Assembly (NCBI RefSeq): GCF_963921235.1
Contig: NC_086108.1
Span: forward strand, 72,480,001 to 72,544,000
Direction of reading: 5' to 3'
Length of the DNA stretch: 64,000 nucleotides
Source of the DNA: Mobula hypostoma
Taxonomy: Eukaryota
Under the pieces are notes generated by a model. It saw only the letters and a list, made by a program, of their open reading frames with translations. It did no database searches and was not told where the DNA came from. The translations under genes and the position numbers were made by a program. Shown here piece after piece: positions 6,761 through 60,200 of the stretch (its first letter is position 1; each line of letters opens with the position of its first letter).

Positions 6761-9512
6761 TTCCTCTCTTTCTTTCAATAATCTTTTAAACAGAAGGCTT
6801 CTTAAGCATTGAGGTAATCTTAGCAACCGTAGCTTCATCTGAGCTGCTACTTTCCCATTGTCCTACGTATACTGCTCCTCACCCAATTTAAAACTAACCT
6901 GTTTTTTCATATTTGCAGTCCTGATGAATGGCCTTTAACTTGCTGTGTGTTTCTAGCATTTTACAGTTGTAACCTCACCTACTACCAAACAGCTGATGTA
7001 AAGAAGCAGGATATCACAGTGCTGCAGGGGCAAAATCATCTCAAGTTCTGGCTAAGATATTTGAAAAGGGGAAAGTAGAGTTAAGAGTCCAAATTAAAAT
7101 GGTGTTTATTTGACTTTGTTTAAAAGGCAACATTTTGCAGCACTTTCTACATTCCCAACATTGATCACTTCTGCAAGAGTTTAGAATTGAGAAGCTAACA
7201 ATATCTAGTGCAAATCCTCATTTAGTTCCATTTCCCAACGCTGTACTGAAATGTACATTAATCGGTTTCATACCAGTTATCAGCACCATTACTATGAGTA
7301 GTAAATTTCCATTTTCATTCAATAGATTCCACTTTTCCCTCAGGTGATCTGTTGGAATCCTCATCCATGTCTTTTATACTTGAGCAAACAATATACCATT
7401 AATGGACCTCCCATTTTCTATCCTCCATCAATTCAAGGTTGTTCAATCTATTTCTGCTTGTGCTCCAAGCAGCAACATGTCAGGCTATTCTTTACCCCTG
7501 CTCTCACTGATCTAGATTGACTCCCAGTTATGGGGTGGTTCAGTGTTAAAGTTCTCAGCTTTGTTTTCAGATCCCTGCACTGTATTGGCCCTCCTTTTCC
7601 TTAGCATTGTAATCCTCTGGGGTGACTATACTCCTCCTGTTCTGGTTTCCTGGGTGTCCCTGAATTCATTCACTCATTCCATCATGAGTCTTGTACAATC
7701 AGCCACTCAGTTCCCGAGTTCTGGAATTCCATCTTTAAACCCGCCTGGTGGAAAGATGGCAAGGCAACTGCCTCTCTTTGTTCTTCGACCATCTTTATGG
7801 CCTTGTCATGGAATTATGTGCCATTGTTGGGGAACATGGTTGAAAAGTTACTTTGACTTTTAGCAACTCAGCCAAATCTTTCCACTTTAGCATAGCAGAA
7901 GTTCATAGAATTCAGCTACTGTGATCACTATGACTGAAATTTTGTGGTGATCCTTTTCATTGCTTGGGTGCATTTGGGAAACTCCTATGAAATCCCAGAG
8001 AAGATGGATCAATCTTCCCTGAACTCTTAACACAATCATCCCACCAATGCACTTTGCAAAATATTCTTTAGCAACATGTATGAAAAAGAATAAACAGTCA
8101 ACATTTTAAGCCTAACCTGCTGAGTGCCTCCAGCATTCAGTGTAAGCTGCTTTGGTTTTCCAACATCTGCAGACTTTCTCATGTTTATTCTTTAGCAAGC
8201 TTTTTGTAAATGTTGTTGATACTGGTGTCTTGAATCTTGTTTTTAGGTTTGGCTAATTCTCTCCTTCTACTTTGCACATCTGCAATAATATTATGTCCTA
8301 TGAGAATTGAGGACTGGAGAGAGCCCAGACCCAACTGGTACCAATGAATAAATTAAGTTCTTCAATCGAGTTGCAAATGAATGGTAGACAACTGGATAAA
8401 AGTAACTACTTTTTCCTACTTAAGTCTAACTGTTAAAAGTATTGAGCTTTGTGATTTTACATAAATATCATTATGCTGTAAACTTTCACTATAAGGACAG
8501 GCTGATGAACTTTGTGTTTTTTTAAGAAGTTGTTTAGTTGTTTAACTTTCTCTGTGGGGCAGGCTAAACAAGTAGATAAGCTATTTTTTTGAAAGCTGAA
8601 GGACGGGGTCATTAAAGGACTCAAAGATAACTGCTGCTACCAGGTGCGGTCTTTCATGGTTCAGGGTGATCAAACTGAGACAGTACAAAAGAATAACAAC
8701 ATAACTTGATAGGGCATTATTACTGTGGAAAAATATCCCAGGGTGTTTCACAAAGCTAAAACAGTTAACAATTATGTGAAAATAAAAGAGATACTGCATT
8801 TGGAATCAGGAAACATTACTTGCTGTTTTGCAACATATCTGACCTGTATCTTCTGTAGATTTTGATTGAAGTCTGTTGAGGATGAGAGAGGTAGAAGGGC
8901 ATAACTCCTGCCCTAATCTTAAACCTAAGGGAGGGTTAATTTCAAATAATCCCTTTCTCTTGAGGTTCGAGCCTGGATGACTGAGTGGAGAAGAGATTGG
9001 GAAATATACAAGAGGCAAAAGTTGAAGGAATGCAAAATTAGTTTTACAATATAAAATTCCAAGCTATGATAACTAATTGGTGTGAATTCTCCCACTGATG
9101 TGTACTCAATGTCACGATTGATTCATGGAGAACTATTAATATTAGTCTTAAAAAGCTTTATGGTAACATTTCAAATTAGACAAAATTGCACAGATGAACT
9201 GAACTGGCATTAAATCTTCAGATGAGAATATACGATTTAATCATTTGGGAATTTTGTATCTTAAAATGCTTTTGGCATTTTTACAAATTCACTTCAGCAG
9301 CTGTGAAATAACTTTTGCAAATCTCGGTGGTGCCAAATTAAAATTTACTGCTGAGAATTACAGCCAAGTAAGTTATGTTGTCCCATAATCCTTTGGAATC
9401 CCCAAGGATGCCGCTGGGTTTAATGAATTTTGTTAGATTTAACATCTGGTTCAGATTCTCTAACTTGTTATGATTTGTATTGATTAATAATCATCCTTCA
9501 ATTAGTTTTCTA

Positions 9513-10516: not shown

Positions 10517-11190
10517 TATTTTACACTGACACGGTGAACAATGACTGACTATAATAATAAAACATTATTTTGGCTTCTATGGAAAATCCTGTTTATTTTC
10601 CTTTCTACATCTCACGTTTTAACTGCCTGTGTTAACTAGAAACAGTCAAAAAACAGATAGTTGGTGACCTCTTTCCAACTAGTGTATCTGGATGTATGAT
10701 TCAGTACTGCAAACTTAGAGCCCAGAGAGCAGCTTTGGTCTCTTTGTTTATGTACTTACTTTGGAAACAATTCAGGGAAGGTTCATTGAGTTGTTTCCTG
10801 GAATCGAAGTGTGAATTTGAGGAAAGATTGTGTAAGTTATAGAGTTCAGAAGAGTGGTATGATTTTATCGAAACCTGCGGTATTAGAAGAGAGCTTGATT
10901 GGGTAGATGAAGAGTTTTGAGGAAAACCCAGTGACCTGAAATATTAACTGTGTTTCTCTGTATACAATGTAGCCTAAACTGCAGAAAATTCTGAACATTT
11001 TCTGTGGTTATTAGAATTTTAATGCTTGCAGTATTTTGCTTTCAGTCTAGAGGATGTTTCCCAGTGAGTGGGAGTCCAGGAGATAGACTTTCCAAATGAC
11101 AGGGTGGGGGGAGGTGCGGAGGTTAGGTAGGTCACTAATTTAAGTCAGAGGAGGAGAATTCCTGATCCCAGAGCTACCTGTTGTGGTAAC

Positions 11191-11836
11191 ACACATAAAA
11201 GTTGCTGGTGAACGCAGAGGCCAGGCAGCATCTATTGGAAGAGGTACATTCCATGTCCCATTCCCATTCTGATATGTCTATCCACGGCCTCCTCTACTGT
11301 AAAGATGAAGCCACACTCAGGTTGGAGGAACAACACCTTATATTCCGTCTGGGTAGCCTCCAACCTGATGGCATGAACATTGACTTCTCAAACTTCCGCT
11401 AATGCCCCACCTCCCCCTCGTACCCCATCCGTTATTTATTTTTATACACACATTCTATCTCTCTCTTTCCTTTTTCTCCCTCTGTCCCTCTCACTATAAC
11501 CCTTGCCCATCCTCTGGGCTTTTTCCCCCTCCCCTTTTTCTTTCTCCCTGGGCCTCCTGTCCCACTATCCTCTCATATCCCTTTTGCCAATCAACTGTCC
11601 AGCTCTTGGCTCCATCCCTCCCCCTCCTGTCTTCTCCTATCATTTTGGATCTCCCCCTCCCTCTCCCACTTTCAAATCTCTTACTAGCTGTTCTTTCAGT
11701 TAGTCCTGACGAAGGGTCTCGGCCCGAAGCGTCAACTGTACCTCTTCCTAGAGATGCTGCCTGGCCTGCTGCATTCACCAGCAACTTTGATGTGTGTTGC
11801 TTGAAATTCCAGCATTTGCAGATTTCCTCGTGTTTG
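11191..11836 (+). mobile_element. Penelope-like element, 5'-truncated, with short inverted arm
   Basis: TSD ctgttgtggtaac (11178-11190 / 11837-11849); GIY-YIG endonuclease C-terminus RLEEQHLIFRLGSLQPDGMNIDFSNFR*; 11191-11248 is an inverted copy of ~11737-11795. Confidence 0.92.
11701..11738 (+). ncRNA. Minimal hammerhead ribozyme motif in PLE repeat, degenerate (GAAA changed to GAAG)
   Basis: tagtc CTGACGA a gggt-ctcg-gccc GAAG cg TC aactg; homologous to the intact-core copy at 57108. Confidence 0.6.
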
Positions 11837-24799: not shown

Positions 24800-26737
24800 C
24801 TTTAATATAATATTTTTTCTCAGCATAACAAAACTTATAATTTCCAGATACGCTTACATTTATATTTCTTCCCCTCACAGATATCAGGCATCAGAACACT
24901 GCCATCAAAATATAAACATCACCACAACATCCTATACAAAAGCCCTTATTAGTATAGCAGACAGGTTTACAGCTATATACTGCAGAAAAGGTTGCCATGT
25001 TTTATGAAAGCTATTTGTTTTTGAGTGTACCATACACGTCAAAAAGTCCAAAGGAATGTATTCATTTGATTAATTTATGCCAACCAAAAAGTCCAGGGGC
25101 CTTATCGGATATCCAACAAAGTAAAATGTTCTTCCTCGCACAAAAAGTCAGGATGTTAAAAAGTTTTTTCTGATGTGCATTAATAATACAACTGCTGAGT
25201 AAGCCTAAGAGAAAAGACACTGGGTCCAGTTCAAGCTCCATCTTCAGAATCTTTTCCATTTCACCCAAAATATCATTCCAGTATGCCTAAAGTTTGGGAC
25301 AAGTCCAAAAACAGTGGGTGGAAGTTCCAGTATTTACTTTACATTTAGAACACATTGGAGAAACCCCTGTCTTAAATTTTGAGAGACGATCTGGAATCAG
25401 ATGGGCTCTATGCAGAATTTTGAGTTGCAATGTTTTGGTTCTATTACAAACTGAAATCTTCTTTGCATTATCACAGATGCCTTCCCATGTTTCAGCTGTA
25501 ATTTCTACTCCCAGACCTTTCCCAGCTGCTCAGCTTCTCCACAAGAACATTCCCTCAGGATGCTGTAAAAAGTACTAATAGAGATTTCACCCTTAGAATG
25601 AAACACCCTCTTTTCTGTGTCAGAACTATGGAAATCAGTTAACAATGATAGCAGGGCTGCCCTTTATCACCACTACTTTTCACACTAGTAATCGAGCCAT
25701 TGGCTGAGACTATTCGGCGAGACCCCAAAATATCTGCTCCAGACATAGGACTAAAGTCACATAAAATTACATTGTATGCGGATGATGTTCTAATTTTCTT
25801 ATCAAACCCTGCTATATCAGTGCACCACCTTATACAATGCATCAATTCATTTAGCGCCTTTTCAGGTTATAAAATCAACTTTACTAAATCAGAGGCTATG
25901 CCTCTGGGGAATCTGCAGCAGGTGCCTGACACAGGGTGTTTTCCCCTTTAAATGGTCGCAGACAGGTTTTGTTTACTTAGGCATATTTATCACACCTACG
26001 TTTGATCAATTATTCAAAGCTAACTTTACACAGTTATTTGACAAAATCAAACAGGATCTTGAACGATGGAGCACTCTTCCCATTTCTTGGCTTGGCAGAA
26101 TATCCTTGCTTAAAATGAACATTCTTCCTCATCTGCTGTACCCAATACGAATGATTCCAATCATTTTTACCCAACAAATACTTAAAAAAAATAAATGGCT
26201 GGTTTGTTTCTTTCATCTGGAACAAAAAAAGACCCTGTATTAAAACATTTAAGTTACAGCTTCCCAGTAGTCTAGGGGGTCTGGATTTTCCAGACATCAA
26301 AAAATATCATTTAAGTTCCTTTTATCTTGTGTGGTTGACTGGGTTTGCAGGGACCCCTCCTCGATTTGGCTAGGCATTGAAGCTTCACAAGCAAAATGCC
26401 CTCTTATTAATTTGCTTTTCCTCAATAAGATGAAACTAGTTAAGGAATATTGTCGCAATCCAATAACAATTAATACAGTCAGGGCTTGGAGGGTGGTGTA
26501 ACAGATTGAGGGCAACACAGCGAAAATATCACCTTTCACTCCAATAACTGGCAGTCCAGATTTTCAGCCTGGCGTAATGGATTCCGGATTTAAACTTTGG
26601 ATTTCTAAGGGTATTTTCCGTCTAGGAGATTTGTTTGATGAAGGAATGATGATGTCTTTTAGTCAAATAGTACAGAAATTTAACATACCCAACAAGGATC
26701 TTTTTCGTTTCTTTCAGATAAGAGATTATATACAGAA
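24800..26737 (-). mobile_element. L1-clade LINE, 5'-truncated and 5'-inverted
   Basis: 24800-25645 (minus): ORF2 C-terminus with CSKCK...HCFWTCPK knuckle, 3'UTR and A-rich tail. 25646-26737 (plus): RT QGCPLSPLLF, LYADD, GYKINFTKS. TSD agagctctttt at 24789 and 26738. Confidence 0.92.
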
Positions 26738-26847
26738 AGAGCTCTTTTTTTTTGTTCTTACTACTTTAATGTGCAGAAACTAAACTCATATCTAATCCAG
26801 TTCTGCCATCACAGATTTAGTCACTTCAGTTTAAGTTGAGACCAAGC

Positions 26848-30961: not shown

Positions 30962-32734
30962 CAGGGCCGGACTTTAGGCAGGGCTAGGCTGGGCTGCAGC
31001 CCAGGGGCCCGAGCTGCAGGGGGGCCCAAAATAGGTAGCTATCATCATGGTGGACAAAAAAAAATACGCGAGTGGAGCACATGAAAGAAAAAAGAAACAA
31101 GAAAAAGAGGACTGTGAGAAAGAAGCATTAAAAATGACATTGAAATTGACAGAATTTTTTAAACCTGTTCTCGATGTTGCAGCAGTACCATTGCTCTGGT
31201 CACAGTCTGAGACCGGTGGACAAACAGTGACTTGTTCAACAGCTAGCGCTAGCACCAGTATTAGCATAGGACCACCATCCTTGCCACAGTCAGCAGCTAA
31301 TGTTGAGGAGGCAGAGAGCATGACTTTAGGATTCCCAACCACAGAGGCTTCCGAACAACCAAGTCGGGCCGTTGTTAACGTTAATGTTACCGCTACTGAG
31401 GATCCTTACAGCACTGATCCTGAGCGCTGGGCTAAGAAAGGGCCGGAGTCCTGCCAGAATAAGGATGTGGATATCAAAGCTTTGAAACGAGTATACAAAC
31501 AGCAGAGATTTTTTTCTCCAAATTTCACTTCAAACGCAAGCTCATAAATGGTGAGTACAATATCAAGGCAATGGCTCTTATACTCCCCTTCTACCGGCTG
31601 TGTGTTTTGTTTTGCATGCCGCATCTCAGTGATGGTAACTGTCAGTCCATCTTCAAAACTGGTTTTAGCGACTGGAAACATGCCGCTGAGCGCATAGGAG
31701 AGCATGAAAATAGCGAACACTACTGGAAAACGATACTGACCTACGTTACACTAGCATCTGACAGTGGAAGAATAGATACAGAACTGCAAAAACAGTTCGA
31801 GCCAGAGTGTGTCTACTGGACTGACGTATTGAGAAGAGTGTTGGTGGTTGTGAAGATTTTGGTCGAGAGGGGACTGGCTATCCGAGGCTCCAGTGACATA
31901 TTTGGCAGGCCTGATAATGGCAACTACATAGGCTCAGATCCACAATGGGACAGGACAGGCTGAATCATCTCACTCTGATGTCACTTGAAAGTGACCTTGT
32001 TCAGAAACTGGATTTTAGTGATCTGATCAAGGACTTTGCTGCAAAGAAATCCAGAAGAACTAGGCTTTAATTTTGAAAAACAAGCATCTGACTTTGTAAA
32101 TATCTGGGCTTGTCTGTCAGTGCTGTTGGTATTTTTGTGGCAATAGGCTAATAGTTGACTGTTTACAAACTTAGTAAGTAATAAGTGGTCTTTACTCTGC
32201 AAGCCACACAGTACAGCAATAGGTTAGTATGTGCTAGATCTCATTTTTCAAAAAGATTGTTGGAGTATTGTCAAGTTTCCTAGTTTCCCATAGTGCCATC
32301 TCTCTTGGCCTTTTTGTCTCTCATTTCCATTTTACTTTCTCAGAACACACAGTTGAGAAAAATACCGAGATAAAAATGTTTTGGCATTGTTTGAGAGATA
32401 AGGCCTATGGTATGTGCAACAATAGCTAAATAAAGATTTAAGATTGGGTACATCATACTTCGTCTCCCTCATAACTTTACTAAGCCAACTAAGCTTAGGT
32501 CAATTTTTGAGTGGTTTAGATATCCTTCAAACTAAGAATCTGCATTACTTTCTGTCCTCCCTCTTAAGGCCCGTAAGTTTATAGCCTACGTATTGTACTA
32601 AACCAATGTCTTGGTCCACAGCTTTGATAATTAGACCAGTACGACCTTTGCTCTTGTTCTTGCATTTTTTTTGCTTGGTACAGCAGCATCTTACGGTGTT
32701 GGCAGGGGCCCCGGCCCCACTAAATCTGGCCCTG
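30962..32734 (+). mobile_element. hAT (Tip100/ZMYM1-like, TTF zinc finger/DUF4371) DNA transposon, internally deleted
   Basis: TIRs cagggccgga / tctggccctg; 8-bp TSD ctttccat / cttttcat; ORFs SGAHERKKK, WLLYSPSTGCVFCFAC, GFSDWKH..HENSEH, LVERGLAIRG..NGNY, then a jump to C-terminal RSTMGQDRLNHLTLMSLE. Confidence 0.93.
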
Positions 32735-32985: not shown

Positions 32986-33232
32986 TGCATAGGGTAATCA
33001 GACTATTGGTTCACCAAGTCTGTGTGTACACTTAATCACCTGGACCATTCCTACCATGTGATCCACGCAGAGAAGTACTACCCAAATCAAACCCACCAAG
33101 CCTCAACATCTCCTGTTACCACCTCTCACTTCCTTCCCCCCCAGGTGATTTAGGAGGAGAAACGCAATGCCAATCATCTGAGAGACAACTTCATAGCTCT
33201 GTCCAGCTTCATATATAATCAATACAAAATGT

Positions 33233-34335
33233 AACACACACAAATTGCTGGAGGAACTCAGCAGGTCAGGCGGTATCTATGGAAATGAATAAACAGTCAG
33301 TGTTTTGAGCCAAGACCCTTCATCAGGTCTGGAAAAGAAGGGGAACATGACAGAATAAAAAGATGGAGGGAGGGGAAAGATGACAGCTGGAAGGTGATAG
33401 ATGAAGCCAGGTGGGTGGGAAAGGTAAAGGGCTGGAGAGGAAGGAATCTGATAGGAGAGGAGAGTGGACCATGGGAGAAAGGGAAGGAGCAGGGAAACCA
33501 GGGAAGGTGATGGGCAGAGAAGAGGTAAGGAACCAGAGTGGGGAATAGAAGGGGGGAAATTTTGTTTTTTACTGGAAGGAGAAATCAATATACATGCCAT
33601 CAGGTTGGAGGCTACCCAAAAAGAATCTAATGATGTTGCTCCTCCACCCTGAGGGTGACCTCATTGTGGCACAAGAGGTAGTATGGACCGATATGTCAGA
33701 ACGCGAGTATGAGTCGGAATTAAAACGTTTGGCCAGCGGGAAGTTCTGCTTTTGGTGGATGAGGCAGAGATGTTCGGTGAAGCTGTCTCACAATGTACAG
33801 CGGGTCTTACCAACGTAGAGGAGGCTATGTCTGGAGCACCGTAAACCACAGGTGGCTCCAGCAGATTTGTAGGTGAAGTGTTCCCTCGCTTGAAGGACTC
33901 CTTGGGACCCTGAATGGAGGTGAGTGAGGAGGTGAATGGGCAGGTGTAGTACTTTGGCCGCTTGCAAGAATAAGTGCTGGGAGGGAGATTAGTGAGAAGG
34001 GATGAATGGATGAGGGAACCATGGAGGGAGTGATCCCTGCAGAAAGTGGAGAGAGTGATCCCTGCAGAAAGTGGAGAGAGGGAAGAGGTAAAGATATGTT
34101 TGGTGGTAGGATCCCTTTGGAGATGGCAGAGGTTGCGGAAAATGATGCACTGGATGTGGAGGCTCATGGGCTAAGGACAAGAGCTCCCCCACTGTTAAGG
34201 CAGCAGGAAGATGAGGTGAGCACGGGTGTTCAGGAAAAGGAAGCGATGCGGGTGAAAGCAGTGCCAATGGTGGAGGAAGGGAAACTCTATGTTTTGAAGG
34301 AGGGGGACACATCTGATATCCTGGAAAGGAAAGCA
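33233..34335 (-). mobile_element. Penelope-like element fragment (GIY-YIG region + terminal repeat with decayed hammerhead)
   Basis: Minus-strand LQRDPTTKHIF...CKRPKYYTCPFT...LYVGKT; decayed HHR ctgatgaagggtcttggctcaaaac at 33293-33328; ~25-bp internal tandem duplication 34028-34080. Confidence 0.88.
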
Positions 34336-34355
34336 GGTACCTTTCCCATTATACA

Positions 34356-40107: not shown

Positions 40108-41344
40108 AAATCAATTTTTCTCACCCCTTATGGGTGGAGTGTATGTGTATTTTTCCCTCAATCTCAGGTCCTCCATCAGAGGCCTGGGAGCTTGTGGATT
40201 CAGCACAGTATCCTTGCTGTTCCTAGTAGTGCACTCTTCTGGACCGAGATCCTGGATGTTGTTCCCAGGATTTGTTGGAGCCACTCACCCAGTCCAGGTG
40301 TCACAGCTCCAAGTGCTCCTATCACCACTGGGGTTACTCTGGCTTTAACCTTCCACATCCTTTCTATCTGCTCTTTCAAGCCCTGGTATTTCTCCAGCTT
40401 CTCATATTCTTCCTTCCTGATGTTACTGTCATTCAGGATTGCCACATCTATTACTATTGCTTTCTTCTGTTCCTTGTCCAGTATTACTATGTCAGGTTGC
40501 TTATCAGCCGGTATTTAGAAGTCCCACAGGATCTTAGCTCTGTCATTATCCACTACCTACTCGGGAGTTTTCCCATTTGGACTTGGGAGTGTCCAGTCCA
40601 TACTCAGCCCAAATGTTCCTGTGCACAAATCCTGAAACTTGGTTATGCCGTTCAGTGTGTGCTGTCCCTCCCTGCACTTTACACCCTGCTACTATGTGCA
40701 GGATGGTTTCAGCGGATTCCTTACACAGTCTGCATCTTGGGTCTTGTCTGGTGTGATCGACCCCTGCTTCTTTGGCTCTTGTGCTCAGCACCTGTTCTTG
40801 TGCAGCCATGAGCAGTGCCCCTGTGCTGTACCTCAGCCCTGCCATTTCCAGCAATTGGTAGGACTTTCTTACATCAGCCACCTCAGATATCTGGTGATGG
40901 TACATCCCGTGCAGTGGCTTATCCTGCCGTAGCCTCTGGTCCTCTGGCTCTGCTTCACCCACTTCCATTTCCATATCCCCTGCCTGCTGTCTGAGGTATT
41001 CTCCTAGCAGGTCATCCTTAGGGGCAATCTTCCTGACATGCTCATGGATGTTTTGCATTTCTTCCAGGACTGTGGCCTTGACACTTCCAAGTCCCCATCC
41101 TCCTATATTCTGGCTGGTGTCAGTTGTTCGGAAGAAATCCTCCATGTATTGTTAGTAATTTCCGGTTCTTGATGTCAGCAGCTTCCAATTTGTTCCTTGG
41201 CCAGCACACTATTGTGGCTGGGTACCTGATGACTGGTAGGGTGAATGTGTTGATGGCTCTGATTTTATTCTTCCCATTCAGCCGACCTTTTAGGTCCTGT
41301 CACACACTTTGGAGGTATTTGGATGTTGCAGCCTTCCTTGTGTC
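40108..41344 (-). mobile_element. R4-clade (Rex6/Dong-like) non-LTR retrotransposon, 5'-truncated
   Basis: CCHC knuckle CRLCKESAETILHIVAGC; RHNQV; restriction-like endonuclease KILWDF..QPDIVILDK..VIDVAI..EKLEKY..PVVIGALG; 3' end abuts the TA repeat. Confidence 0.9.
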
Positions 41345-41940
41345 TGACTGCAGTGGTTTTTGTAAGCAGCATATCTGTGAAAGATTCTGATATGTTCATC
41401 GGGTAGTTACTTGCAAAATGTGGCTTGGCTATAAGCCAGAAAAATTCAGGGCTTCAGTAAAGTTGCAAGCATTAGGATTTTGTGAATATAAACAACCAGA
41501 GCTCTGGTATAAAGAACTCTGCATGCACTAAAGTTCTTGCATGAACTTCAAGTGGGAGACAAAAAGCTGCTTGTCGAAGTAAATGCTAAGTCCAAAGCCC
41601 AGCAGGATGAATGGAAGGCCAAAAGGAATGGAGTCAATGGAGATATGAAAACAGAGGATTTGTCAGATGATGTTGCAGATGCAGAAACCAAGAGGAGAGA
41701 TCAGATTGTGAAGGAAACAATGGAAGGATTAATAAGACTACTCCAGTGAACTAAATGCAACTTCCTGAGATCAAGGTGCACAAACTAGAAAGAAGAAATA
41801 GGAGGGGGAAGATGGAGAAAAAGAATGTGAACTAGAAAGAAAAACTGTGAAAGAGAGAAGGAATGTGCAAAAGAAAAAGAAAGGCATGGAAGTAGGTGCA
41901 GAGAGAGAAAAGGAAAAGAAAGGTGACCAGAGGTGGAAGA
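41345..41940 (+). pseudogene. RBM25: Processed (intronless) RBM25 pseudogene fragment: RRM through RE/RD-rich region, with stops, frameshifts and internal deletions
   Basis: VFVSSISVKDSDMFIG*LLAKCGL / KLQALGFCEYKQPE / LHELQVGDKKLLVEVNAKSKAQQDEWKAK / ETKRRDQIVK / YSSELNA / EREKEKKGD match RBM25 as I recall it: VFVGNISEKASDMLIRQLLAKCGL, KLQAFGFCEYKEPE, LHDLQIGEKKLLVKVDAKTKAQLDEWKAK, ETKRRDQMIK, YSSELNA, EREKDKKRD. Confidence 0.92.
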
Positions 41941-41944
41941 ACTA

Positions 41945-42125
41945 AGAGTTAACTTCTACAACTACCACAGAGGAGGCCCCAGAACATGAGATTGTTTCAT
42001 CGCCACAAGTCTCACCTGCCAGGCAGAGTAACCCGTCCCCCCGTCAGGAAAGATGTTACCAACAAGAATAAGAAATCCTCCGCAGCAGTTAAATCTTTAG
42101 GCCTGAACAGGACAATTTAAATTTA
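41945..42125 (+). mobile_element. Gypsy-like LTR retrotransposon pol C-terminal tail and start of 3'UTR
   Basis: TTTTEEAPEHEIVSSPQVSPA...ERCY(P)TRIRNPPQQLNL* (stop 42098-42100), an RRYPxRxRxPP-type tail seen after Gypsy integrases. Confidence 0.75.
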
Positions 42126-43765
42126 CCATGGTGAGGACAATATGAGTGAGGTTGATGTTCTGGAGCATGTTGATATTAAGGGAGAGGAGGTGTTGGAGTT
42201 GTTAAAATACATTAGGACGGTTAAGTCCCCGGGGCCTGACGGAATATTCCCCAGGCTGCTCCACGAGGTGAGGGAAGAGATTGCTGAGCCTCTGGCTAGG
42301 ATCTTTATGTCCTCATTGTCCACGGGAATGGTACCGGAGGATTGGAGGGAGGCGAATGTTGTCCCCTTGTTCAAAAAAGGTAGTAGGGATAGTCTGGGTA
42401 ATTATAGACCAGTGAGCCTTACGTCTGTGGTGGGAAAGCTGTTGGAATAGATTCTTAGAGATAGGATCTATGGGCATTCAGAGAATTATGGTCTGATCAG
42501 TGACAGTCAGCATGGCTTTGTGAAGGGCAGATCGTGTTTAACAAGCCTGATAGAAAGAGGTGACCTTTGAGGAGGTGACCAGGCATATAGATGAGGGTAG
42601 TGCAGTGGATGTGATCTATATGGATTTTAGTAAGGCATTTGACAAGGTTCCACACGGTAGGCTTATTTAGAAGGCATGGGATCCAGGGAAGTTTGGCCAG
42701 GTGGATTCAGAATTGGCTTGCCTGCAGAAGGCAGAGGGTGGTGGTGGAGGGAGTACATTCAGATTGGAGGATTGTGACTAGTGGTGTCCCACAAGGATCT
42801 GTTCTGGGACCTCTACTTTTCGTGATTTTTATTAACGACCTGGATGTGGGGGTAGAAGGGTGGATTGGCAAGTTTTCAGATGACACAAAGGTTGATAGTG
42901 TTGTAGATAGTGTACAGGATTGTCAAAGATTGCAGAGAGACATTGGTAGGATGCAGAAATGGGCTGAGAAGTGGCAGATGAAGTTCAACCTTGAGAAGTG
43001 TGAGGTGGTACACTTTGGAAGGACAAACTCCAAGGCAGAGTACGAAGTAAATGGCAGGATATTTGGTAGTGTGGAGGAACAGAGGGATCTGGCGGTACAT
43101 GTCCACAGATCCCTGAAAGTTGCCTCACAGGTAGATAGGGTAATTAAGAAAGCTTATGGGGTGTTAGCTTTCATAAGTCCAGGAATAGAGTTTAAGAGCT
43201 GCGATGTAATGATGCAGCTCTATAAAACTCTGGTTAGGCCACACTTGGAGTACTGTGTCCAGTTCTGGTCGCCTCACTATAGGAAGGATGTGGAAGCATT
43301 GGAAAAGGTACAGAGGAGATTTACCAGGATGCTGCCTGGTTTAGAGAGTATGCATTATGATCAGAGATTAAGGGAGCTAGGGCTTTACTCTTTGGAGAGA
43401 AGGAGGATGAGAGGAGACATGATAGAGGTGTACAAGATGATAAGAGGAATAGATAGAGTGGATAGCCAGCGCCTCTTCCCCAGGGCACCACTGCTCAATA
43501 CAAGAGGACATGGCTTTAAGGTAAGGGGTGGGAAGTTCAAGGGGGATATTAGAGGAAGGATTTTTACTCGAGAGAGTGGTTGGTGCGTGGAATACACTGC
43601 CTGAGTCAGTGGTGGAGGCAGATACACTAGTGAAGTTTAAGAGACTACTAGACAGGTATATGGAGGAATTTAAGGTGGGGGCTTATATGGGAGGCAGGGT
43701 TTGATGGTCGGCACAACATTGTGGGCCGAAGGGCTGTACCGTGCTGTACTATTCTATGTTCTATG
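42126..43765 (+). mobile_element. CR1 LINE, 5'-truncated, the best preserved LINE in the window
   Basis: KSPGPDGIFPRLL; 321-aa ORF with SGVPQGSVLGPLLFVIFINDL and KFSDDTK; ctattctatgttctatg tail; a few stops and indels. Confidence 0.96.
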
Positions 43766-44107: not shown

Positions 44108-44121
44108 AACTATTTTCAGAA

Positions 44122-44307
44122 CAAACAAGAGAAAATCTGCAGATGCTGGGAATCCAAGCAACACACACAAAATGCTGGAGGAACTCAGCAGGCCAGGCAG
44201 CATCTAAGGCAAAAAGTACAATTGAAGTCTCGGCTCCAAATGTCAAGTGTACTGTTTTCCATAGATGCTGCCTGGCCTGCTGAATTCCTCCGGCATTTTG
44301 TGTGTGT
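44122..44307. mobile_element. 186-bp PLE-derived fold-back insertion (two inverted terminal-repeat arms only)
   Basis: 14-bp TSD aactattttcagaa (44108-44121 / 44308-44321); arms acacacacaaaatgctggaggaactcagcaggccaggcagcatcta and tagatgctgcctggcctgctgaattcctccggcattttgtgtgtgt. Confidence 0.9.
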
Positions 44308-54450: not shown

Positions 54451-56164
54451 ATCAAAATTATTGTTATTTGTCATAAAGTAGAAATTCCATTATTTAAAAA
54501 TATTAATAAAATATATTACTGTGCAACAATGACGCTAGTGATGTTTCTGATAACTTGATAACTATTTGGCTCTTCTGTATTGTCTTCAATCTTCCTAACA
54601 ACATCTGATCCACTTAAAATAATATTCCTCACATTATTTTTCTATGGTTAAAAAATGAAGTTAGTTGCATTGCCTTTTTGTATGATGACCTGTACTGCAT
54701 TATTCACACCTGTTGGGCACGTTGAGATAGTGTCTAATTACAGATGCGTGACTTGAAAAATTTAGCCAGGATTTACAGAAATTTGCAGATGTGACCATCA
54801 CATTTTGTACATTTGTCTTTAGACCATAAGACATATGCCAGATTTTGTGATAATACTTCAAGAAATGTAGTTTGAGAAATCAGGGGCAGTGTATGCTTTA
54901 AATCAGCACAGAATTGACAAAAAAAAGACACACTTTTTATACTTGTTCGGACATGGGGTTCAAAATGCAGATTGTACTATTTTATTGTGGGATAACTATC
55001 TAGAGTAAATTTGTTCATCTGCTGAATTTAAAATGTAGAGATCATTTAAGAGAATAAATCACCAAATTATTACAAGTTGGTGTGTAGAGCACTGTCTGCT
55101 TTGTAATAAAATTTTTACTTGGAAGCTAATTGTTAAATATAGTCTGATGCTCACCATATTAACTCTGAAATTCACGATTTTGCTTCTGAGTTGTAAATGC
55201 AGATGATGTGTTAATGCCTGGAAACAGTTGAACATGCTGTGCTAGACTTGAAAGGAACAGTGAATGCATGAACACAAGTTCTACAATATTCTGCATGGCC
55301 TGCGGAGCAGTTCACTGAGAAACAGCTGCAGTTAGGTGGTCTGTAACTTTAAAAACTTGCACCTCATTAAGACTCTCCCTCAGGAGTGCCCCATCTCTGT
55401 TCCACTCAAAGGCAATCCTAAAACTGCCAAAAGAAATCAAACTTCACTCCCACCAACCCGACTGTGACATCAACTGCCTCCATTTACACTGCGAAGGCAA
55501 GATGGGAGTGAATATATTCCTGGAAATTCAAGGCGTATGCAAAATAGGCATGAGTTGGCAATGGTAAATTAGGAAAATACATTAAAAAATGACTAACACT
55601 TAAAGAGCAAACACATATTAAATAATGTAAATCCCTATAAAAGGTAAATTGGTCTATCTATGGCTTAAAGTGAGACCTCTTATTTTTTTTTACGCCTATT
55701 CATCACATTTGCACCCTTTGATAGTAAAATAGAAAGTTGCAGAATTTTTTAAATGCTGAAAGACTGAAATTTGCCAGAGATCAAAGGGACCTATGTGCCC
55801 TTGTGTAAATTTAACTTTCAGATACAAGAAATATGGAAGGTGGATGCTGGGTTGAGCTTTATCACAAGAGAAGTGGAGGAGAATGGAATTGTCTTATAGT
55901 TGAGCTCTGGTGAGACTGATCTGGAATACTGTGTACAGGTGCGATCCTGCAGTCCACGTCAAGATAGGAGGAGAGCAGATGAATGTTACAAATCTGTGTG
56001 CTGAGAAAACACTGAATACTGAAGGTTTCTTAACTTGTATATAGAGTAATGTGGCATATTTGTGTTTTTTTTAATTAGACAATCTCTTTTTTTCCTTTAT
56101 GTCATCATTCTCACCAAACATAAAAACCACATAACCTTGTCTAAAAAAGGTTAGTGGGATTATT

Positions 56165-57202
56165 AAAAACGCAAACAGGAGGAAATCTGCAGATGCTGGA
56201 ATTTCAAGCAACACACATAAAAGTTGCTGGAGAACACAGCAAGCCAGGCAGCATCTCCAGGAAGAGGTACAGTTGACGTTTTGGGCCGAGACCATTCGTT
56301 AGGACTAACTGAAAGAAGAGCTAGTAAGAGATTTGAAAGGGGGAGGGGGAGATCCAAAATGATAAGAGAAGACAGGAGGGGGAGGGATGAAGCCAAGAGC
56401 TGGACAGTTGATTGGCAAAAGGGACATGAGAGGATCATGGGATGGGAGGCGTAGGGAGAAAAAAAGGGGGAGAGGGGAAGCCCAGAGGTTGGGCAAGGAG
56501 TACAGTGAGAGGGACAGAGGGAGAAAAAGAGAGAGAGAAAAAAATAATAATAGTAAGTAAATAACGGATGGGGTACGAAGGGGAGGTGGGGCATGAACGG
56601 AAGACATATAGCCAGAGAAAGCAGGATCTCCCAGTGGCCACACATTTTAATTCCACATCCCATTTCCATTCTGATATGTCTATCCACGGCCTCCTCTACT
56701 GTCAAGATGAAGCCACACTCAGGTTGGAGGAACAACACCTTATATTCCGTCTGGGTAGCCTCCAACCTGATGGCATGAACATTGACTTCTCAAACTTTCG
56801 CGCTATTGCCCCACCTCCCCTTCATACCCCATCCGTTATTTATCTATCTATTTATTTATTATATATTTTTTCTCTCTCTGTTTTTCTCCCTCTGTCCCTC
56901 TCACTATACTCCTTGCTCATCCTCTGGGATTTCCCCCTTCCCCTTTCTTTCTCCTTAGGCCTTCCGTCCCATGATCCTTTCATATCCCTTTTGCCAATCA
57001 ACTTTCCAGCTCTTGGCTTCATCCCTTCCCCTCCTGTCTTCTCCTATCATTTTGGATCTCCTCCTCCCCCTCCCACTTTCAAATCTCTTACTATCTCTTC
57101 CTTCAGTTAGTCCTGACGAAGGGTCTCAGCCCGAAACGTCGACTGTACCTCCTCCTAGAGATGCTGCCTGGCCTGCTGCGTTCACTAGCAACTTTTATAT
57201 GC
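56165..57202 (+). mobile_element. Penelope-like element insertion with long inverted terminal repeats
   Basis: 15-bp TSD gttagtgggattatt (56150-56164 / 57203-57217); 56165-~56595 is an inverted copy of the repeat at ~56805-57202; GIY-YIG C-terminus DLPVATHFNS...RLEEQHLIFRLGSLQPDGMNIDFSNF between the arms. Confidence 0.95.
57108..57145 (+). ncRNA. Minimal type I hammerhead ribozyme (intact core) in PLE terminal repeat
   Basis: Stem I tagtc/gactg; CUGACGA (57113-57119); extra A; stem II gggu-cuca-gccc; GAAA (57133-57136); palindromic ACGU in place of stem III; GUC triplet ending at 57140. Confidence 0.8.
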
Positions 57203-60200
57203 GTTAGTGGGATTATTGTGTGTTTTAAAGTGTGATGGTAGCTGAGATTAATCATTGACTTTTGTGCGAGATTCTTTTGAAATCCAGAATCTTTGAAAGG
57301 ATTAACGATGATTGGTAAGATGATCCCTGCCAGTTCTGTTGTACGTCCTTACTTTGGAAGTTGTGTGGTAATCAGTGGGTAGGTAGAGTCTTCCTGCTTC
57401 TGTGGTCCTGACTGATACAAATAACTCCCAACATGGATGGAAATTCATCGTGCAGAACCACACCATATTGAGCTCATTTCAGCACGTTGACCTGGCAACA
57501 CACCATCATGTTGAATCACCACAACTGGTATTGAGCCCGATATTTTGGCCAGCAACATTCTTCTTCTTTGCTTGCAATGTCACTGTGGCATTATCACACA
57601 CTGCAGATTGCCAGGGGAAATAATGGATATGGAAAATAGGATGACTCCGCAAAGAAAATATATGCAAAATAGCAACAGAAGAACTAATGTGTGTTCAAGG
57701 AATGCAACTGAGTGACTTATTACATGACCTATCACTGGAAAAGATTTTGACCAGGACTATGATGTAATTCAAGAGCCTTTCAGTAAACTATTAATTCAGT
57801 AACTATATTAGAAACAAAATCTTTTACATTCAGCATTCTGTTAATGTGTTTCTGTCGACAGCTTGGAAGTATTTTCTTTCTGTCTCCAATGCATAATTAA
57901 AAGAGTCATAAAACTGTATGAGAAAGGTTGGTATAATCACAATAAAATCATAAAATGGGAAGAAAATAAAGTTCCACTGTGAACTCTCTCCCTGGTTTTA
58001 AGATCCCTTAGGAACATAAAATGAAATGTATCCAGTCCATGATATTCAGGTAGAGGACAGGCAGCAGCAGTCTTGTACATAATGATTTGAAACATGCCAT
58101 TTACAGCTGTCTACTTTGCACTTCTAATTGAATAAAAGCATTTGAGTCTGATGGATGACACTGAAGATAGAATCTGTCAAGCATCTGCTGTCTTGCATTC
58201 CCAGTACAGACAAGCACAGCCCAGTTCTGCAGTTAAATACACAGCTATTTAAGGCGAGAAGATACTTGTGGAATTTGAACTGGTTGCTGCCCTTCGTGTT
58301 TCGGATGACTTGGTTGGTCCTTAGAAGGACAAAGAGAGGATTCTTGCCAGGGATAGGGGGTACTATTCAGGTCTATCAATTGGTGCATCTCTATAATTCA
58401 TCTCTATAATCAATGAAATATTCTGCTATTCAGTTGACGGTGGCCAAAATGGACTTGGCTCTGGGTGGTGTTTGTATTACCCTTTATAAATTATTAGCTA
58501 TTCCTGTAGCACTTTTGTGTTCATGTGTGTTATTGGAATAAGATCCTAATGTGCGAGATCAGTTTTCCTGGAGGTGTCTTGCTTTTATCTCGAGTGTTAC
58601 TATAAATCAGCTTTTGACAGCCTGTCTAGTAATGGCAGACATTAGCTAAGAAGTTAAATTTGGAATCAAGATATATAAAAATAATTTACTAAATTCTGAA
58701 AGGTATTAATAAGACTGCTTGTGGCATGGTGGCCTTTTAAATATACTTCATAAGGTTTCATATCATAATATGATACTGTGTTATGATAAAAATGTTAATC
58801 CTTCAGGAAGTGGGTCAATGACATGATCAATAAACTGTCCTTCATCTCATCAGCCATGTTTGAATTCAGACCTGAGCAATCTGTTCTCTATTGATTGTGA
58901 ATCAGGCATTTCAGCATATAATTCAATCTATTTTCTAATGAATGAATGCAAGTATAAATTTGTGTATGTTTCACAAGCTGAACAAACTGGAAAATCATGA
59001 CGATAACTGGTGTGGGAAATGTAAGTGCCCAACTACGGAATAGAAATAGAACCATAACACACAGGTTGATTACCCATCCTGTCTGAACTTGGTCTTGGAA
59101 AATGAGAGATGAATCTATTATCCACAAGTTTTTAGAAATGATTTTAAACTTATGATTACTTACCCACTCACCAAGGAAACTGCTATTTTTTATACTTCAT
59201 TAAAATGTCTGCCAGTTCACCTCTTCATGTTCTCTGTTTCAGAGGGATAATCCAAACCTCTTTCCCAGCCTCATCTCATAACTTGTGTCCCTCTTCCCCT
59301 GCCGTGTCCTGGTAAGCCTTCTCATACATCGCTCCACCTGTGGCTCCCAGAATCAGCCAGTTACACTCCAGTGGACCCTAACAACTGACCTATAAATTTC
59401 TAGCATGATGTCTTTAATTTTGTTTTCCCACGTTACTCAAAGTAGGTAATCAATTTTATTTTGTAATAACCTTATCAATTCCTCTGTGAAATTCACCGAA
59501 GTCTTTTTACTTTGTGAGAGGTTAGAGAGAAATTGCAGAAATCTCTGTGGAAATGTTTGCTTTCTTGTTCACTACTGGTGAAATTCCTGAAGCCTGGAAA
59601 AAAATCTCATGTTGTTTAAGAAGGGTAGCAAGGACGAGCCAGGAATCTTCGGGTCGATCAGCCTTTGAGTAATGTCATGAAGAACCTTAGCAGTGATGCG
59701 GACTGCAATAATTGGCCTCTGGTAGCATGATCCTCTTTCTATTAGTCCAGCTGTCTCAGCTTGGACCATCATCCCCCAGAAGTTATTGGGAAATAATTTG
59801 CGTGGGTGAACTGCATTGGTTCAAGATAGATCTAGTTGTCAGGTGGCTTGCTTTGTCACTTCAGTGAGCGAATTAGAGTCAGGTGCTTTGTATCAGATAT
59901 GAACCAACTGTGGGCAAAGAGGCGATAGTCGATATTCTCAAAGGACCAAAGCGGCTTAGAGATGACCTTTATTTAACCCCACCAGGGACAAATATATTGA
60001 ACTAATTTCCTCACATCTCTTTGACAATTTGGACTCTCAATATCAGAGCTACTTGTCCAGTAGCGTGATCGGCCCCCACTACCCTTGCAGTGTGGGCTTT
60101 AAAAGGCTTAATGCTTTGTATGTGGTTCAGTAAATGTCTCATTAATCAAATGAATCACCAGATCGTTTACTTTTAATGTTTTCCAGCTGCAAATTTTTTT

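Follow-up and report, generated by a model that had tools for sequence, protein, structure and literature searches.

A sequence-intact minimal hammerhead motif joined to an inverted sister arm in a ray Penelope-like element: a likely silent relic

Introduction

Does a hammerhead ribozyme whose core is complete cut RNA in the place where it is found? The question is raised by a 38-nt motif at 57108-57145 on the forward strand of the 64-kb stretch of Mobula hypostoma DNA analysed here (the window). A sequence-only reading had seen in it a minimal hammerhead borne by a Penelope-like element (PLE), belonging to a high-copy family and able to cut host pre-mRNA if a sense partner was available. The explanation that we favour, and consider highly probable, is that the motif is a sequence-intact minimal hammerhead at the 3' end of a truncated PLE, joined to an inverted arm of the element, and that the copy is probably silent, a relic predicted to be trapped in a hairpin. 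An intact core is insufficient to infer activity, and the presence of an inverted sister arm needs checking too.

Anatomy of the motif

57108..57145 (+), minimal type I hammerhead motif, read directly base by base; the sole match to our descriptor in the window
57120 (+), extra unpaired A between A9 and G10.1, from the sequence; a conserved feature of PLE minimal hammerheads according to PMC4209133
57136..57139 (+), palindromic ACGU (positions 15.1, 15.2, 16.2 and 16.1), from the sequence, with the dimer structure evaluated

In the conventional hammerhead numbering, stem I pairs 57108-57112 with 57141-57145 through four Watson-Crick pairs and, at its end, a U-G; the first core box C3-U4-G5-A6-C7-G8-A9 occupies 57113-57119, stem II pairs 57121-57124 with 57129-57132 (three G-C pairs, including G10.1-C11.1, and one U-G), and the second core box G12-A13-A14-A15.1 lies at 57133-57136. 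The bases C15.2-G16.2-U16.1-C17 (57137-57140) end in a U16.1-C17 step of the required U16.1-H17 type, and the sequence predicts a cut after 57140, the position that had been given before. The base-by-base reading also bears out the complete core, the stems and the ACGU palindrome described earlier; A57120 was absent from that description. As ACGU is self-complementary and there is no intramolecular helix III, helix III is possible only with a second copy.

The insertion that carries the motif

The motif lies toward the 3' end of an insertion of 1038 bp (56165-57202), which is built as follows:

56150..56164 (+), left copy of a 15-bp target-site duplication, from the sequence
56165..56603 (-), inverted sister arm, with 3' UTR, a dead hammerhead at 56270-56307 and a one-sided extra tail of ~45 nt (56165-56209)
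56611..57202 (+), sense arm, a 5'-truncated PLE copy; the family sequence departs from the window before 56611
57203..57217 (+), right copy of the 15-bp target-site duplication; its first 3 nt also fit the element end

The right junction is bridged by a contig in run X1 (0 differences) and by one in X5, which carries a different organism label (5 differences in 252), so the insertion is older than that split. Within the sense arm the order is the end of a GIY-YIG endonuclease ORF (to about 56801-56807), a pyrimidine-rich 3' UTR/pLTR, the hammerhead and ~60 nt of 3' end; at ~310 nt downstream of the GIY-YIG C-terminus, the motif thus occupies a position in the PLE terminal repeat. The 66-aa endonuclease-tail peptide (56604-56801) shares 94% identity with the Mobula hypostoma protein P0001 (E 2.2e-31), and the five matches after P0001 are all from Hypanus sabinus, which points to a myliobatiform ray as the likely host. 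Besides RT motifs and a CX4CxxC linker, P0001 has a GIY-YIG domain, with a weak Pfam match (E 4.6e-4, under the curated cut-off); the relatives P0001, P0002 and P0005 match PF01541 at E 4.6e-4 to 2e-3, below that cut-off, and a Pfam search of the three truncated endonuclease peptides in the window gave no match. From its sequence, the insertion can be assigned to the EN+ PLEs, in whose relatives here the C-terminal endonuclease follows the RT and of which this copy keeps the last 66 aa only. The CX2-5CxxC linker is present in P0001 and P0002, was lost by truncation from the 57108 copy and also occurs in Nematis; a Neptune-type clade label would rest on the relatives, not on the truncated 57108 copy itself.

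The inverted arm is 87% identical over 399 nt to 56807-57205. The homologue at 56270 that had been listed separately is in fact part of this arm, and hence of the same insertion as the 57108 motif. The arms are separated by seven bases (56604-56610) that can be assigned to neither of them, nor to the family sequence upstream of 56611, and that are possibly untemplated junction bases. An inverted 5'-truncated arm, a one-sided tail and a target-site duplication, which are described for EN+ PLE insertions (Craig et al. 2021, PMC8557442; Arkhipova et al. 2013, PMC3846280), are all present.

Sibling copies and decay

11191..11836 (+), sibling fold-back insertion, with the sense arm from ~11250, a damaged hammerhead at 11701 and a 13-bp duplication at 11178/11837
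33226..34352 (-), older subfamily copy, with a longer ORF remnant and a dead hammerhead at 33293-33330
44122..44307 (unstranded), mini fold-back insertion, both arms of which start inside the hammerhead; 14-bp duplication at 44108/44308
about 8075..8185 (unstranded), highly decayed mini fold-back remnant, with a 13-bp duplication at 8062/8186; weak alignments, scores 18 and 22

The homologues previously placed at 11701 (+), 33293 (-) and 56270 (-), each said to carry core mutations, are confirmed in position and in damage. At 11701 the copy carries A15.1->G, and its first stem I pair is a C-A mismatch; the copy at 56270-56307 shares that mismatch and has G5->A, G10.1->U and G12->A; that at 33293-33330 has G12->A, a destroyed palindrome and one stem I mismatch. 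Partial copies at 11187-11251, 44122-44307 and about 8075-8185 had been missed. In the 11191-11836 insertion the inverted arm is short and its 5' end maps 0-4 nt after the cut-site equivalent; the start of this arm lies at 11248-11251, a 4-nt overlap common to the sense arm. All four head-to-head PLE insertions in the window have target-site duplications of 13-15 bp, and none was found on searching the older copy at 33226.

How one copy came to remain intact can be judged from the decay of its siblings. The three sibling arms differ from their majority at 52 of 1059 non-CpG and 10 of 66 CpG positions, rates drawn from three sequences only by majority rule. Several hammerhead lesions, e.g. those at G12 and at the base after C17, are at CpGs. 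At these rates one or more of the three arms would stay intact with a probability of 0.38-0.68, or 0.16-0.38 with a doubled CpG rate; with a survival chance of 0.16-0.68, no selection on the 57108 copy is needed, and neutral, CpG-driven decay is compatible with a single intact copy among the three. At the level of the family, the subfamily of 33293 aligns with the flagged copy in the endonuclease and then again only from the stem I edge onward. To judge from these alignments, such a restart of conservation would fit selection on the motif and the 3' end in active masters.

Abundance of the family

Contig records aligned to 817 element bases at 80% identity or more number 150,559 in X1 and 138,650 in X5; these are records and not copy number, and they show a very abundant family, in keeping with the high copy claimed earlier. 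Among the variants listed within the motif are 57128 A>G (the majority) and 57132 C>T (~44% of X1 depth). Among the loose-end sites listed, 57109, at the stem I edge, occurs in all 4 runs (789, 651, 91 and 40 contigs) and is in each the strongest near the motif. The agreement of these loose ends is low (0.39-0.5) and their consensus resembles the upstream sequence of the older subfamily, so they may reflect subfamily divergence, which is inseparable here from truncation. No starts or ends were shared among the contigs aligned to the element, and the higher summed depth over 57108-57191 is not usable, as depth cannot rank element parts. The 57108 locus itself is a minor one, a single decayed insertion of a known motif class; with very many copies whose 5' ends can be mapped, the family is usable as a model for the role of the PLE hammerhead in vivo.

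Role of the motif in the family

The double hammerhead is the established arrangement through which minimal motifs would act. In a tandem (pLTR-ORF-pLTR) master RNA, two motifs would pair via ACGU into such a double hammerhead and cut after C17, and a lone motif would rest in an off-state rod, from which refolding likely needs the element's own protein. When the 57108 copy inserted, both target strands were likely cut by the element's enzyme, which would have started two cDNAs at sites ~45 nt apart; these would have become the two arms, each truncated at its 5' end and with its 3' end facing outward, one of them with a tail. A precedent is PAc (Poseidon of Anolis carolinensis), which in vitro cuts and extends both target strands, with two internal start sites (Frangieh et al. 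2024, PMC11167929), a reaction that would yield twin arms. Each arm has since drifted by ~5% at non-CpG sites, the left hammerhead dying and the right one likely surviving by chance.

Cleavage in the masters is not the only role that the motif might have. It may be kept for its fold, as a protein-binding or RT stop/start signal, with no biologically relevant cleavage rate; this alternative, which concerns the family and is compatible with the explanation of the 57108 locus as a silent relic, we regard as somewhat unlikely. It draws on the anole element, in which hammerhead mutants have no effect on in vitro insertion and no RNA-seq reads start or end at the cut (PMC11167929), and on the Naiad PLEs, which thrive without canonical hammerheads (PMC8557442). 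In the window, of the four arms with ends near the motif three stop within it and not at the cut, and 57109, the strongest nearby loose-end site in 4 of 4 runs among those listed, would also suit a stop at the fold, but the low agreement of these ends possibly marks subfamily divergence. All the catalytic bases are kept in the family state, however, and a purely structural role would presumably not need them; moreover, published dimers of this class do cleave, if weakly (PMC4209133), and dimer cleavage by Lunse et al. is cited in a review (PMC6765202).

The arm ends carry a further suggestion. Of the nine in the window, four fall in the motif or no more than 4 nt past the cut site: a single one maps 0-4 nt beyond the cut, and the other three lie about 7, 10 and 18 nt short of it (the 7-nt case with a weak alignment). 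This is a hint toward cDNA 5' ends set by the motif; against this, short copies end near the motif anyway. One might speculate that the hammerhead is a protein-triggered switch setting where reverse transcription ends in vivo, the rod or the cut end fixing the 5' ends of the twin arms, an idea that we consider doubtful. If it were true, fold-back insertions would be a genome-wide fossil record of ribozyme action, and if the motif does set the arm ends, those ends would be the first footprint of a minimal hammerhead acting in vivo.

Predicted folding and activity of this copy

In a read-through RNA the two arms are predicted to form a hairpin of ~400 bases (MFE about -722 kcal/mol), and in this context the inverted arm takes up 35 of the 38 motif bases in pairs with P>0.9, leaving both hammerhead stems at P 0.0. 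For the sense arm alone, the predicted state is a rod in which G5-A6-C7-G8 pairs with C15.2-G16.2-U16.1-C17 (57115-57118 with 57137-57140; P 0.98-0.99), and the open hammerhead fold has P 0.0007. A double hammerhead is put at -16.7 kcal/mol, less stable than two rods at -12.9 kcal/mol each or the best predicted dimer at -29.0, by nearest-neighbour energies that take no account of Mg2+, co-transcriptional folding or tertiary contacts in the core. Such an off-state rod between core box and cut site could arise in every minimal hammerhead that ends in ACGUC. In the double-hammerhead geometry as modelled, we infer that the 57108 core would cut the site of its partner, its own site needing an intact partner core.

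According to these models the 57108 copy is likely buried in the hairpin with its inverted arm and so would not cut RNA. Burial in the arm duplex, the off-state rod and the lack of an intact sense partner in the 64 kb together argue against cutting. An RNA starting inside the insertion after 56604 would be without the inverted arm.

It would be very unlikely, in our judgement, that the copy is live, that is, that through a plus-strand transcript lacking the arm, or through folding ahead of it, the motif meets an intact RNA of the family and forms with it a double hammerhead by which transcripts of the host or of the element are cut. The 57108 core is intact while that of the sister arm is dead, but this survival fits chance. 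Stems I and II are predicted at P 0.89-0.995 when the inverted arm is left out; the arm lies upstream, however, and is already transcribed when the motif is made, to bury it as predicted, and the off-state rod is favoured in the predictions. The abundance of the family means that partners could exist; within the 64-kb window a search for an intact sense-strand partner motif found none, and a trans pair would have no more to hold it than stem I, of 5 bp, and a shared helix III of 4 bp. The nearest full copy to the motif is the inverted, dead one, and the earlier proposal of cutting given a sense partner meets, in the window, a sole other full copy on the sense strand (11701) that is 45 kb away and damaged at A15.1.

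The proposed cutting of host pre-mRNA likewise finds no support for the 57108 copy, the motif being predicted buried and no host exon having been found, the latter a weak test. A splice-site scan of the window gave 14 candidates, and Pfam was run on 148 ORFs (144 top-ranked of 702 unmasked, and 4 of the 14 splice-site candidates); it returned only two RT-family matches and two near E 0.01, none a host exon, in a scan by which short exons can be missed. We also considered A-to-I editing of the hairpin. A>G places number 13 in X15 and 19 in X16, compared with 10 and 10 in DNA runs, and were not taken as editing; X15 and X16 are contigs, only guessed to be RNA, from which ends, strand and level are unreadable.

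Is the resemblance to a hammerhead due to chance?

The core boxes alone occur 6 times in the 64-kb window, compared with 5.84 expected, and 51 of 100 shuffles reach 6, i.e. the boxes alone are at chance frequency. A descriptor demanding stems and the U-H site, composed after the motif had been seen, matches the window once (57108-57145) and gives a match in 1 of 200 dinucleotide shuffles. The Infernal hammerhead scan that the sequence-only reading had proposed was run and was negative: Rfam had 0 matches in the whole window at the gathering score, and 3 matches at E<=10 in 55900-57500, none of them to a hammerhead family. With no score and no monomer helix III, 57108-57145 falls outside the canonical hammerheads modelled in Rfam. 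The folding z-score of the 38-mer is -1.84, with 12 of 200 shuffles folding equally well. Among the four aligned copies only, two-sided change is seen in 0 of 9 stem pairs and one-sided change in 2. Outside copies for covariation were sought at 114 metagenome loci with the 19-nt tail pattern, of which 0 had at least 35 nt of element homology, and element copies gave 0 matches in viral contigs and 0 in genome contigs. Box frequency, the silence of Rfam and the weak folding z-score would all suit a chance match, but this has next to no probability given the rarity of the full descriptor in shuffles, the location of the motif where PLE hammerheads are reported with four diagnostic features beyond the core boxes (PMC4209133), and its presence in two subfamilies whose upstream UTRs do not align.

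Other elements in the window

The region 41290-41798 (+) resembles RBM25, with 78% identity over 74 aa to an RBM25-like protein of Heptranchias. It is without introns, is frameshifted and aligns with P0020 in four adjacent blocks in three frames; from these alignments, it is likely a processed pseudogene. The endonuclease tail is found, at 69-88% identity, inside the ray/skate gene models P0003, P0007, P0009 and P0018 (named DIPK1C, NMUR1, VKORC1L1 and ABHD14A), as either an exonised repeat or an annotation error. Other ORF remnants include what we take to be a long CR1/L2-like RT fragment at 42121-43604 (+) and, presumably, L1/Tx1-like, hAT-like transposase and RTE/R4-like fragments at 25065-26783, 30974-31963 and 40200-41151 (-). 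The L1/Tx1-like remnant carries a zf-RVT match in Pfam.

Comparison with known systems

The motif class is already published. Minimal hammerheads have been described in the Xena, Poseidon and Neptune PLEs of fish, with ~4,000 in coelacanth and 9,000 in Xenopus; they are inactive as monomers and of low activity as dimers (Cervera and De la Pena 2014, PMC4209133). Like these, the 57108 motif is of type I, with a helix I of 4-5 bp, an extra base between 9 and 10.1 and the pair G10.1-C11.1, and like them it has palindromic bases at 15.2-16.2, no helix III and a pLTR position; they too are mostly single copies in truncated elements (PMC4209133). Differences lie in helix II, which has 4 bp here but 7-8 bp in the Schistosoma families, and in the spacing of opposite-strand motifs, 100-700 bp in that work and about 800 bp here (PMC4209133). 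In the portions of PMC4209133 covered, text and supplements name no cartilaginous fish, and no paper describing the ray family appeared in the literature listings searched for hammerheads or PLEs of cartilaginous fish.

The insertion resembles those of EN+ PLEs in its head-to-head arm, the tail at one end, the duplication and the strong 5' truncation (PMC8557442; PMC3846280), and the CX2-5CxxC linker of its relatives is the layout of Neptune/Nematis PLEs (PMC8557442). The target-site duplications are longer, 13-15 bp in 4 of 4 cases compared with 8-10 bp in the rotifer examples (PMC3846280), and the one-sided tail has ~45 nt compared with 30-40 in the published EN+ examples (PMC8557442; PMC3846280).

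Non-LTR retrozymes also carry type I hammerheads, related to PLE pLTRs; they have been reported from one chondrichthyan genome and are intron-depleted in Xenopus (bioRxiv 10.64898/2026.07.22.740005). Unlike these direct tandem repeats without an ORF, the 57108 locus retains part of an endonuclease and stands without a direct tandem partner, and it thus lacks the combination of at least two direct tandem units, complete hammerheads and no ORF that marks the group.

The in vivo function of PLE hammerheads is called unclear in PMC8557442. The closest experimental system is PAc, whose hammerhead cleaves only with protein and is dispensable for in vitro insertion (PMC11167929). As in PAc, a PLE hammerhead here adjoins a two-site tail; unlike PAc, the ray element probably belongs to a different clade, and activity was measured for PAc whereas the 57108 motif is known from sequence alone (PMC11167929). 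The earlier assignment to a PLE-borne minimal type I hammerhead, of a class described as dimer-dependent, agrees with all the features of sequence and context: the 57108 copy is a member of the known class (Cervera and De la Pena 2014), whose activity, by analogy, would likely be dimer-dependent and protein-assisted.
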